A DNA stretch of 64,000 nt from a phage: sequence record PZ452602.1, one strand, 5' to 3'. Shown piece after piece: positions 129 to 28,017 of the stretch (position 1 is its first letter; every line of letters begins with the position of its first letter). Under the pieces are notes generated by a model. That model saw only the letters and a list, made by a program, of their open reading frames with translations. It searched no databases and was not told the DNA's origin. The position numbers and the translations under genes are program-made.

Positions 129-158
129 TTTGAATAAATATCCTTAAAAGGAGGGTCT

Positions 159-815
159 ATGGCAGCACCTAGAATATCATTTTCGCCCTCTGATATTCTG
201 TTGGGTGTTCTAGATCGCTTGTTCAAAGATAACGCTACCGGGAAAGTTCTTGCTTCCCGGGTAGCTGTCGTAATTCTTTTATTTATGATGGCGATTGTTT
301 GGTATAGGGGAGATAGTTTCTTTGAGTACTATAAGCAATCAAAGTATGAAACATACAGTGAAATTATTGAAAAGGAAAGAAATGCACGCTTTGAATCTGT
401 CGCCCTGGAACAACTCCAGATAGTTCATATATCATCTGAGGCAGACTTTAGTGCGGTGTATTCTTTCCGCCCTAAAAACTTAAACTATTTTGTTGATATT
501 ATAGCATACGAAGGAAGATTACCTTCAACAATAACTGAAAAATCACTTGGAGGATATCCTGTTGATAAAACTATGGATGAATATACAGTTCATTTAAATG
601 GACGTCATTATTATTCCAACTCAAAATTTGCTTTTTTACCAACTAAAAAGCCTACTCCCGAAATAAACTACATGTACAGTTGTCCATATTTTAATTTGGA
701 TAATATCTATGCTGGAACGATAACCATGTACTGGTATAGAAATGATCATATAAGTAATGACCGCCTTGAATCAATATGTGCTCAGGCGGCCAGAATATTA
801 GGAAGGGCTAAATAA
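159..815 (+). CDS. t: holin T
   Basis: 218 aa; MAAPRISFSPSDIL... matches T4 holin length and sequence as recalled; strong SD aaggaggg 7 nt upstream. Confidence 0.95.
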   Translation: MAAPRISFSPSDILLGVLDRLFKDNATGKVLASRVAVVILLFMMAIVWYRGDSFFEYYKQSKYETYSEIIEKERNARFESVALEQLQIVHISSEADFSAVYSFRPKNLNYFVDIIAYEGRLPSTITEKSLGGYPVDKTMDEYTVHLNGRHYYSNSKFAFLPTKKPTPEINYMYSCPYFNLDNIYAGTITMYWYRNDHISNDRLESICAQAARILGRAK

Positions 816-24729: not shown

Positions 24730-24737
24730 TATTTATA
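24730..24737 (-). promoter_or_regulatory. late promoter TATAAATA upstream of soc
   Basis: Exact TATAAATA on minus strand about 30 nt upstream of soc ATG. Confidence 0.6.
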
Positions 24738-25361: not shown

Positions 25362-26701
<1,340 letters not shown>

Positions 26702-26722
26702 TATATCATCCTCAGCAATTTA

Positions 26723-26760
26723 TTTTATAATACCATAACAAGCTGAGAAAGTAAACAAAT
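26723..26760 (-). promoter_or_regulatory. T4-type early promoter (GTTTAC-N18-TATTAT)
   Basis: Minus strand TTTGTTTACTTTCTCAGCTTGTTATGGTATTAT then GAGGATGA SD. Confidence 0.65.
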
Positions 26761-26791
26761 TTATGATAAATATTAATTTAAAGGAGGACAT

Positions 26792-26992
26792 ATGGTACAA
26801 AAATTAATGGCACTTGTTAATGCCATAAAAGGTAATAAGAAACGTATAGCTTTTACTATTTCTGCTATGGTAGGAATTTTACTCTGGAACTTTATTTTAT
26901 CACCTGTTGCAATTGCACATGGTATTAATATTCCAGTAGTTACTCTTGATACATTCGTAGATTTAGCATTTGCTTTAGTTGGGTTAATTTAA
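26792..26992 (+). CDS. small hydrophobic protein on the opposite (plus) strand
   Basis: 66 aa, MVQKLMALVNAIKGNKKRIAFTISAMVGILLWNFIL...; near-consensus SD AAGGAGGA 6 nt before ATG; convergent with gene 61. Confidence 0.45.
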   Translation: MVQKLMALVNAIKGNKKRIAFTISAMVGILLWNFILSPVAIAHGINIPVVTLDTFVDLAFALVGLI

Positions 26993-28017
26993 ATCTTGGC
27001 ATATTTAGATAGCCGCATTTTAGCCATCAACCCCTGTGCAATATTATTTTTCATATATTCCATAATTTGTTCAGGGGTTGCACCTTCCTTTCTAATCATA
27101 TCATTAACATCTTTTGATTTCCAGGGAGATTTATCCCAAAACATAACCCTTTCTCCTGCATCAACTAATTTAGTCATTCGCTTAATAGTGTCAGGATGAC
27201 GAGGTTCATTATCTAAAACCCACACACGTCTATCTTTAAATGGAACAACTTCTAGGTCTAATTGACCACCCGTAATAGCTATACCATTTTCAATAAAAAG
27301 TGAATCTATAGGTCCTTCTAGAACATATACATCACCATCTTTAACTCGTTCGACTCCATAGATTTTTGTTGCTTCAGGATAAGCTTTGATGGTGATATAT
27401 TTTTGGGGAGCATCTTTCTTTAATGCACGTCCTTGAAAAGACTCAGCTTTTCCATTAGCATTATAAATTGGAATAACAAGACGAGGCTCAGGTATTTCCT
27501 TTTTATATGTTCCCGGTGCTATGCTATTAACTAATTTAGGCCATTCGGTTGTAAACCAAAGATATTTCCATTTATCCTTTGGAATACAACGAGCTTTTAC
27601 GTATTTTATAATTGGATGGTCTTCCGCCAGTTTATCTAATCTAACACATGACGGAAGAGATTTAATTATTTTCTTTTCAGGTTGTTTAGGAAGTTCTTTA
27701 GGTTTTTCTACTGGACGACTTTTACCTTTTTCTTTTCTTATTTCAAAGATATACTCACGATATAAATCAGGTTCAAACTCCTTTAAATATATTCCGATTG
27801 GCGCATGATAGTTACAGTTATAACAATGAATATTTCCTTCATTATTATCACCATAATACCATCCACGAGCTTTATTCTGGTCGGTTTTTGAATCTCCGCA
27901 AACAGGGCATCTAAACCGTAATTTAAAAGTTGAACTATTATTTACTTGTGTGAATTTAGGTAAATGGGCTAATGCACGATACGCAAACTCATTATCAATC
28001 CAAGGTATTGATGACAT
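26989..28017 (-). CDS. 61: DNA primase gp61
   Basis: 342 aa as recalled for T4 gp61; N-terminal zinc ribbon CPVCGDS...CYNC. Confidence 0.95.
   Translation of the reverse strand: MSSIPWIDNEFAYRALAHLPKFTQVNNSSTFKLRFRCPVCGDSKTDQNKARGWYYGDNNEGNIHCYNCNYHAPIGIYLKEFEPDLYREYIFEIRKEKGKSRPVEKPKELPKQPEKKIIKSLPSCVRLDKLAEDHPIIKYVKARCIPKDKWKYLWFTTEWPKLVNSIAPGTYKKEIPEPRLVIPIYNANGKAESFQGRALKKDAPQKYITIKAYPEATKIYGVERVKDGDVYVLEGPIDSLFIENGIAITGGQLDLEVVPFKDRRVWVLDNEPRHPDTIKRMTKLVDAGERVMFWDKSPWKSKDVNDMIRKEGATPEQIMEYMKNNIAQGLMAKMRLSKYAKI

Follow-up and report, generated by a model that had tools for sequence, protein, structure and literature searches.

Lysis by T4, which depends on T, E, RI, RIII and the spanins, is standard textbook material and tends to be regarded as fully described. 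The holin T is required for lysis in T-even phages, and T4 t mutants do not lyse. T is reported to be a single-TM, N-in protein of the inner membrane; it is 218 aa in length, and the lysis-inhibition signal is received by its large periplasmic domain. In phages lambda and P1, second holin-like or antiholin proteins (S107 and LydB, respectively) tune the primary holin. Holins of the 3TM type are represented in Pfam by PF11351 (GTA_holin_3TM, 'Holin of 3TMs, for gene-transfer release') and include the holin of Phage DSL-LC05 (PF11351, E 7.9e-22), which adjoins an M15 peptidase endolysin. We analyzed a small plus-strand ORF of a T-even phage against these systems. The window, the whole 64,000-nt stretch of phage DNA (PZ452602.1), is of the T2-type Tequatrovirus, and the 1-kb stretch around the ORF demonstrated 99.6% identity to Serratia phage PhiZZ30 and 98.5% to T2. 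The features of the locus were as follows.

26141..26701, minus strand: nuclease-like ORF of 186 aa, neighbor of the small ORF in the window
26765..26772, plus strand: late-promoter-like box GATAAATA, a 7/8 match to TATAAATA in which the first base alone differs
26781..26788, plus strand: Shine-Dalgarno (SD) site AAGGAGGA, with the GGAGG core at 26783-26787, 4 nt before the ATG (direct sequence reading)
26792..26992, plus strand: CDS of the 66-aa protein, ortholog of T4T dam.1, RB69ORF029w and RB32ORF030w (phrog_2024)
26792..26845, plus strand: residues 1-18, amphipathic N-terminal helix and basic cluster (K4, K13, K16, K17 and R18), predicted to be cytoplasmic
26846..26917, plus strand: residues 19-42, single strong TM helix (hydropathy and AlphaFold2)
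26885..26935, plus strand: family motif W32-N33-F-I-L-S-P38-V-A40-I-A-H-G44-I-N-I-P48 (family alignments)
26918..26989, plus strand: residues 43-66, loop HGINIPVVT and short hydrophobic C-terminal helix with D53 and D57, predicted to be periplasmic or re-entrant and equivalent to TM3 of the 3TM holins
26989..26992, no strand assigned: convergent 4-nt overlap (TTAA) between the stop of the small ORF and that of primase gene 61, which occupies 26989..28017 on the minus strand

The small ORF is very probably a genuine gene, conserved in the Tevenvirinae as an accessory, which encodes a small inner-membrane protein and carries late-type expression signals. The best overall explanation, to which we assign a probability of roughly 0.45, is that the product is a late accessory protein of the inner membrane, built on a reduced 3TM-holin core and acting as a non-essential modulator of lysis or permeabilization.

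The frame was intact from the ATG at 26792 to the TAA stop at 26990-26992, and the encoded protein, MVQKLMALVNAIKGNKKRIAFTISAMVGILLWNFILSPVAIAHGINIPVVTLDTFVDLAFALVGLI, had the 66 residues given in the original prediction, which was made from the DNA letters alone. That prediction had also singled out the ORF as the only convincing plus-strand gene besides t, with a stop that overlaps the stop of gene 61. Both statements agreed with our data. A six-frame scan admitted plus-strand ORFs with a minimum length of 50 aa and a Shine-Dalgarno site, provided that no longer minus-strand ORF covered them; only t (159..815) and ORF 26792..26992 passed. Minus-strand ORFs made up 91% of the window. The minus-strand stop codon of gene 61 was located at 26989-26991 and overlapped that of the small ORF, and the annotations of T2, T4T, Lutter, ime09, Mosigvirus and Bas37 show an identical overlap of 4 nt. 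The further description of the ORF as antisense-embedded holds for its geometry, that is, for the 4 nt shared with gene 61, and for nothing beyond it.

The ORF is already known as a hypothetical ORF. It is annotated in T2, T4T, Lutter and SV76, under the name dam.1 in the T4T record and the label 'similar to RB69ORF029w; RB32030w' in the T2 records, and it is missing from RefSeq T4 (NC_000866), where the 309 bp that separate dam from 61 carry no annotation yet contain an intact ORF with 97% identity. Over T2 and T4 together, identity ranged from 97 to 100%, and the length of 201 nt was shared. In the T4 gene tables of CRISPRi-ART and HIDEN-SEQ, dam is followed directly by 61, indicating that the T4 copy was not scored as a gene. 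Full-text literature searches with the names 'dam.1' and 'RB69ORF029w' returned nothing, no literature was found on T4 ribosome profiling with 'unannotated' genes, and the T4T genome paper contains no discussion of dam.1. The protein matched phrog_2024, a family with no recorded function, over its full length (E 1.4e-31, residues 2-66 on profile positions 1-65 of 65), and tblastn detected the ORF in 697 phage records, 687 of them at a coverage of at least 80%. What is new here is the link of this family to the PF11351 holin core, together with the omission of the gene from the reference annotation of T4.

Position and strand of the gene, convergent on gene 61, were maintained in Tequatro-, Mosig-, Gapriver-, Kanagawa-, Jiaoda- and Gelderlandvirus. 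The ORF occupies, in opposite orientation, the interval from gene 56 (or dam) to the 3' end of gene 61, an arrangement to which the window conforms. Amino acid identity across these six Tevenvirinae genera fell to about 20-30%. In RB49 (Krischvirus), genes 56 and 61 were adjacent with no such ORF between them. Retention in six genera and absence from RB49 indicate an accessory gene of the Tevenvirinae.

The expression signals of the small ORF resembled those of t. The sequence ATAAATA was located at 26766-26772, 19 nt before the ATG, as expected from the predicted 7-of-8 match to the late promoter about 20 nt upstream. Promoters of the gp55 type, TATAAATA, are centered near -10 and precede a short leader, and the spacing of the box from the ATG agreed with this layout. 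Over the 64 kb, ATAAATA was found six times on both strands together, compared to 41.3 +/- 6.5 expected (about 7-fold depletion), and just two copies were on the plus strand, one 18 nt before the ATG of t and the other 19 nt before the ATG of the small ORF. The t box, AATAAATA at 133-140 (plus strand), is likewise a first-base variant of TATAAATA, and both boxes are followed by AAGGAGG. One-mismatch variants of the promoter 8-mer as a class were at chance level in the window (205 found, 229 expected), and the single exact TATAAATA was located at 24730-24737 on the minus strand, just 3' of gene 56, in the place of soc in T2. Among 12 first-copy family members from six genera, 11 carried NATAAATA at 12-33 nt before the ATG, and a promoter is annotated in the Lutter record at the same place as the GATAAATA box. 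The first T of the late promoter is poorly conserved among T4-like phages (Nolan et al., PMC1524935). Judged by these counts, the placement of the box exceeds what chance would be expected to yield for a promoter motif.

The Shine-Dalgarno site was as strong as predicted, and its predicted distance of 6 nt from the ATG was only approximate, with AAGGAGGA ending 3 nt and GGAGG ending 4 nt before the start codon. All orthologs examined had GGAGG or AGGAG 5-8 nt before the ATG, and the SV76 record contains an annotated RBS before the small ORF. Late transcription of the ORF is thus a prediction with good support from the sequence, and the conserved NATAAATA box and SD site, together with the TM helix and the purifying selection described below, favor the late membrane peptide that had been suggested. 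No plus-strand terminator was found behind the ORF in the window, so late plus-strand transcripts probably read antisense into gene 61. The T4 dRNA-seq study reports 150 transcription start sites in T4, including 22 antisense ones (bioRxiv 10.1101/2024.04.04.588121).

The predicted protein consists of three segments. The N-terminal segment (residues 1-18) had a hydrophobic moment of 1.73. The best 19-residue windows, within residues 19-41, reached a mean Kyte-Doolittle value of about 2.0 and a Wimley-White octanol value of about -10, down to -10.7 kcal/mol, in line with the strong hydrophobic helix noted at the outset. AlphaFold2, run on a 25-sequence alignment, predicted helices at residues 2-12, 16-42 and 52-63 with a mean pLDDT of 80.6, and the pLDDT within helix 16-42 was 84-88. 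All five basic residues precede the TM helix and the sole acidic residues, D53 and D57, follow it. By the positive-inside rule, this charge distribution predicts an N-in orientation, and the N-terminus of the small protein would therefore be cytoplasmic.

Residues W32, N33 and P38 were invariant, and A40, G44 and P48 were present in at least 90%, of 25 Tevenvirinae sequences; N33, P38 and G44 were present in at least 90% of all 36 family sequences, prophage members included. The window protein carries all six residues. No match was obtained when it was searched against Pfam (none at E <= 1), NCBIfam and the PDB sequences, and Foldseek searches of the AlphaFold2 model against the PDB and BFVD returned family members only.

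The link to the holins emerged at the family level. Weak matches to PF11351 were obtained with 5 of the 36 family members, on profile positions 66-116 (30-116 for P0132), and the best score in the family, 15.3 bits (E 0.03), was below the gathering threshold of 24.8 bits. The PHROG profile phrog_3427 ('holin') was also matched by 5 of the 36 members (best E 5e-4), and phrog_11161 ('holin') by two. The PF11351 and phrog_3427 matches were always on the C-terminal part of the profiles. Profile comparison by hhalign was performed with PF11351-type holins as the template, comprising the Phage DSL-LC05 holin and its IMG/VR relatives. With this narrow template (Neff about 2.3), the combined family gave a probability of 91.8-93% (P 3.5e-7) over 53 columns, compared to 0.2% for the reversed template and at most 2.2% for 30 column-shuffled templates. 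The prophage subset of the family aligned with the holins at 94.5% (P 8e-8), and the Tevenvirinae subset aligned with the prophage subset at 99.0% (P 2.9e-18). When the Tevenvirinae subset was aligned directly with the holins, the register was unchanged and the probability was 16.5% (P 0.0015), and the homology therefore rests on the intermediates.

In this register, residues 15-66 of the T4-type protein correspond to holin residues 67-126 (TM2-loop-TM3), and the W-N...P...G...P stretch aligns with the PF11351 motif Y-Q-F-x-x-x-P...G...P-P. The two groups share a TM helix with aromatic-N/Q-F-x-x-x-P, followed by G, a Pro-rich turn and an acidic residue, and then a second short hydrophobic helix ending in G-L, a likeness that extends to phrog_3427. 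Both are small membrane proteins of phages, and the longer relatives of the small protein are encoded near lysozyme genes. They differ in length, about 137 aa for the PF11351 holin versus 66 aa here. The small protein lacks the first 66 residues of the holin, which contain an N-terminal hydrophobic segment and a helical region of about 50 residues, as well as its charged C-terminal tail R-T-F-E-R-I-K-G-K. In place of the 3TM architecture, a single strong TM helix is followed by a C-terminal helix of 12 residues with no charged tail. Whereas the DSL-LC05 holin adjoins an endolysin, the T-even small ORF adjoins no lysis gene, and an adjacent endolysin was seen only for the distant relatives in L026, E. 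coli and Leclercia. By both score and architecture the protein falls outside PF11351, and we call it a reduced or truncated variant and not a member. Descent from the core of the 3TM-type holins appears reasonably probable on the basis of these alignments.

The remote relatives that connect the two groups are from prophages and metagenomes. When 1.84 billion representative proteins were searched exhaustively with an HMM, 21 clusters were obtained, nearly all of 45-99 aa, and only five close loci were found in IMG/VR. Some family members are encoded on bacterial chromosomes, within temperate siphophage prophages. The E. coli relative is the last gene of an element of about 32 kb that was inserted in yegD by a serine recombinase; a soluble lysozyme of the T4 type is encoded about 1.5 kb from the relative, and the element has no annotated holin. 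The Leclercia prophage has the same layout, with the relative within about 1.5 kb of the lysozyme. On the metagenomic contig L026, the relative opens a tight run of four genes that ends in a soluble T4-type lysozyme, and no lysozyme was present near the relative on contig L028. No isolated phage was matched in a tblastn search with P0136, and searches with P0133, P0132 and P0129 detected Tevenvirinae copies only, plus one weak holin match (P0129). These results indicate that the siphophage-type members are known only from prophages and metagenomes.

The prophage neighbors of 180-196 aa and 106-109 aa had no TM segment and no informative matches. A spanin or holin role was considered for these neighbors and rejected, as the intervening proteins of 180 aa and 109 aa were not lysis proteins by any search. 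A prophage neighbor with a TM segment and a coiled coil demonstrated sub-threshold DUF2730 matches only.

Taken as a modulator of lysis, the small protein would act as follows. The ORF would have a gp55-type promoter of its own, GATAAATA, for late transcription and a near-consensus RBS for translation, signals of the same kind as those of the holin gene t. The 66-aa product would insert in the inner membrane with its basic N-terminus in the cytoplasm, its TM helix carrying a buried, conserved Trp-Asn and a Pro kink, and a short loop would place the hydrophobic C-terminal helix at the periplasmic face, either on it or folded back into it. In its ancestry, the product would be a cut-down TM2-loop-TM3 core of PF11351 from which TM1, the long helical region and the charged tail were lost. 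It may oligomerize through the buried Asn or bind another membrane protein, and it would serve as a non-essential modulator of late membrane permeabilization or of lysis timing and not as the lysis trigger. We propose this modulating role tentatively, with less confidence than the holin descent. Since T4 t mutants fail to lyse, the small protein cannot replace T and is presumably not sufficient for lysis. That no lysis gene adjoins the small ORF in T-even phages is an observation that counts against a lysis role.

The likeness to T itself is in gene placement, signals and predicted topology: t and the small ORF are the two plus-strand genes of the window, each has an AAGGAGG SD site and, 18-19 nt before its ATG, a NATAAATA box, and the single-TM, N-in form reported for T is also the one predicted for the small protein. 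No sequence similarity to T was detected. T has a large periplasmic domain, whereas the small protein has about 24 residues past the membrane, and T is essential for lysis, whereas the probable Bas37 ortholog of the small protein is dispensable. By functional analogy, the small protein could be compared to lambda S107 and P1 LydB as a small membrane protein that would be made late with the primary holin and be dispensable for plaque formation; there is no sequence relationship to either. A more specific version, which we regard as doubtful, is that the protein is a second holin-derived membrane protein of T-even phages that would be co-expressed with T, the two late promoters being alike, and tune permeabilization, through lysis timing or inhibition or by priming T via association of the Asn-containing helix. 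The true holins of a group of temperate enterobacterial siphophages in which no holin is annotated would then be the longer relatives from prophages. If the small protein modulates lysis timing or inhibition, it would be an extra component of T4 lysis and would also show that holins can be reduced to a two-helix core.

Genetic data were available for Bas37, which is described as a close relative of T4 in the HIDEN-SEQ study (bioRxiv 10.1101/2025.11.20.689424). The gene bas37_0144 (91945..92145, plus strand) is of the same length as the small ORF and shares 4 nt with the primase gene at 92142..93170 on the minus strand, the same geometry as in the window, and from this geometry and the closeness of Bas37 to T4 it is probably the ortholog. 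The same study lists insertions at 20 of the 24 TA sites of bas37_0144 and classifies it as 'Non-essential', with log2FC values of +0.33 and +0.20, neither significant, in two host comparisons (bioRxiv 10.1101/2025.11.20.689424).

The main rival to lysis modulation is another envelope function, such as exclusion. The gene would then encode a late inner-membrane protein with a non-lysis job (a block to superinfection or DNA entry, protection of the envelope, or anchoring of a protein), and the holin ancestry would be historical. We consider this unlikely, though it survives better than any other alternative. Dispensability in Bas37 is consistent with it, as is a gene neighborhood shared with spackle. 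In E. coli and Leclercia, the relative follows the tail-tip genes, stands beside a homing-endonuclease-like gene and is the final gene ahead of the attachment site, a position at the end of a prophage that is typical of moron or exclusion genes. Furthermore, the gene is limited to enterobacterial phages and absent from RB49, which suggests a role specific to the host envelope. However, imm and sp, with which T4 exerts exclusion, are early genes, and a late promoter would be odd for such a function; the sequence bears no resemblance to known exclusion proteins; and the only family-level similarity found was to holins. Lysis modulation remains our preferred reading. With either function, a conserved, holin-related membrane protein with late-type signals is absent from the RefSeq T4 annotation. 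If the protein has another membrane job, the gene would nonetheless be inexpensive to study and sharply delimited (201 bp, about 700 sequenced phages, non-essential in Bas37). The group of E. coli and Leclercia prophages may have its missing holins in the prophage relatives.

A partnership of the small ORF with the adjacent 186-aa nuclease-like ORF, which had been proposed, was rejected on the distribution of the two genes. In the window, the 186-aa ORF and dam stand between the small ORF and gene 56. The 186-aa ORF was absent from T4, whose 309-bp gap holds only the small ORF; from ime09, SP1 and Pu-Krd-SF3, where gene 56 directly adjoins the small ORF; and from Mosig-, Gapriver-, Kanagawa-, Jiaoda- and Gelderlandviruses. 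The 1-kb stretch that contains both ORFs (26100-27100) was covered to at least 80% by 146 of 504 records. As T4 and most relatives lack the 186-aa ORF, the partnership is unsupported, and the constant neighbor of the small ORF was gene 61. The simplest arrangement, 56(-)/ORF(+)/61(-), as in ime09, SP1 and Mosigvirus, is likely ancestral, and we read dam and the 186-aa ORF as probable later insertions, an order of events that leaves no place for the proposed nuclease partnership.

Selection on the frame bears on the remaining alternatives. Among 13 distinct Tequatrovirus alleles, dN/dS was about 0.17 (Nei-Gojobori), the variable sites were distributed over the three codon positions as 10/2/14, and all replacements were conservative; with the frame kept across six genera, the conservation across T-even phages and the Ka/Ks ratio both speak for a real gene. 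It could be argued that the functional product is the late plus-strand RNA, which would be antisense to gene 61 and the early transcripts and would help in early shut-off, with the peptide incidental. The ORF is convergent on gene 61 and overlaps it, no terminator-like plus-strand site follows it, and early minus-strand transcripts must cross it, all of which would suit such an RNA. Nevertheless, purifying selection acts on the plus-strand frame, residues are invariant at 20-30% overall identity, the SD site is strong and conserved, paralogs and prophage relatives occur in unrelated contexts without gene 61, and a terminator is annotated directly 3' of the ORF in some relatives. A functional RNA is therefore very improbable. 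Equally improbable is a hydrophobic peptide of the type I toxin kind, checked by the antisense early transcript in an addiction or abortive module. The product is small and hydrophobic and its gene is wholly covered by antisense early transcription, and one member had a marginal Ldr_toxin match (E 0.1), but this match in 1 of 36 members is at chance level, the gene is a conserved, syntenic phage gene with a late promoter and not a mobile toxin-antitoxin pair, and no dedicated antisense RNA gene is evident. Finally, the ORF could have arisen by chance within an AT-rich intergenic gap, a reading for which the short length and the lack of annotation in RefSeq T4 (NC_000866) could be cited. This reading is refuted by the dN/dS of about 0.17 and the residues conserved across genera, as well as by the motif and the paralogs.

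Two minor observations concern annotation and copy number. In UniProt, one ortholog bears the label 'Holin', a single case of non-experimental origin. Gaprivervirus TH15 carries two diverged tandem copies of the small ORF, and such tandem paralogs in some phages may recall holin/antiholin pairs.

The late-promoter motif appears to be avoided in the window except at putative functional sites. ATAAATA, the core of the T4-type late promoter, was about 7-fold under-represented across the whole 64-kb window (6 observed versus 41.3 ± 6.5 expected), and variants of TATAAATA with one mismatch occurred there at chance-level frequency. The copies of ATAAATA were located as follows:

before the holin gene t, and before the plus-strand ORF that converges on primase gene 61: one copy each
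24730: one copy just downstream of gene 56, at the T2 position of soc
280, 2898 and 52699, minus strand: three further copies

A possible terminator was found inside the plus-strand ORF, on the opposite strand:

26807-26826, minus strand: terminator-like hairpin ATGGCATTAACAAGTGCCAT, followed by TAATTTTTGT, within the 5' part of the ORF

The hairpin lies downstream of gene 61, about 165 nt past its stop codon, and might serve as an attenuator of early transcripts. It might also be a chance occurrence, since the terminator scan returned 2 such hairpin sites when about 1 was expected.

The ortholog of the plus-strand ORF in phage T4 was intact and is unannotated in RefSeq. The T4 gene tables of the CRISPRi-ART and HIDEN-SEQ screens likewise proceed from dam to 61, with no gene in between.

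NC_000866 17,738-17,938: T4 ortholog of the plus-strand ORF (2239-2439 of the fetched locus L005)

The following two genes are directly adjacent in the window, the start base of dam being the end base of the ORF upstream:

26141-26701, minus strand: 186-aa ORF, phrog_8706, directly upstream of dam
25362-26141, minus strand: dam

The 186-aa ORF was present in at most 146 of the 504 records matching the 1-kb stretch 26100-27100, and T4 is without it. Comparison with restriction endonucleases yielded weak, sub-threshold similarities (DpnII, E = 0.0099; BanI, 0.011; HSDR_N, 0.028), and a PDB sequence search with the ORF as the query yielded no match. GATC is both the cleavage site of DpnII and the site of Dam methylation; the 186-aa ORF and dam could therefore constitute a nuclease-methylase pair of T2-type phages.

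Family members related to the plus-strand ORF (phrog_2024) were also found in tandem, as diverged paralogs, in Escherichia virus TH15:

MT446392.1 (L008), 2495-2692 and 2701-2901: tandem family paralogs

One paralog was of the Mosig-/T4-type and the other of the Kanagawa-type; the second carried its own SD and no late-promoter box. A single family copy was present within the fetched stretch of TH57, which belongs to the same genus. Speculatively, the TH15 paralogs might cooperate as a pair.

Outside the T-even phages, a family member was the last gene, beside the right end, of a prophage of E. coli EC28:

NZ_CP049101.1 (L029/L037), about 1,879,769-1,911,511: prophage of about 32 kb, in yegD via a serine recombinase

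The genes for terminase and portal are split, so that this prophage is probably decaying; its cargo included an ATP-dependent nuclease gene and GIY-YIG genes. The right-end region was detected at ≥80% coverage in about 25 of 5,426 complete E. coli genomes. In the prophage and metagenome loci L019, L022, L026 and L028, the family member regularly lay next to a T4-like gene for a mobile or recombination nuclease, either SegE-type GIY-YIG or Endonuclease VII. These flanking genes hint that the family gene moved between T-even phages and temperate siphophages by homing-endonuclease-driven exchange.

One T4-type copy from a Logan assembly (P0135) was atypical, in that all of its replacements relative to the T4-type sequence (A>V, T>I, S>F, P>L, H>Y and R>C) were explicable by single C-to-T changes. 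It probably reflects assembly from bisulfite-converted reads rather than natural variation.
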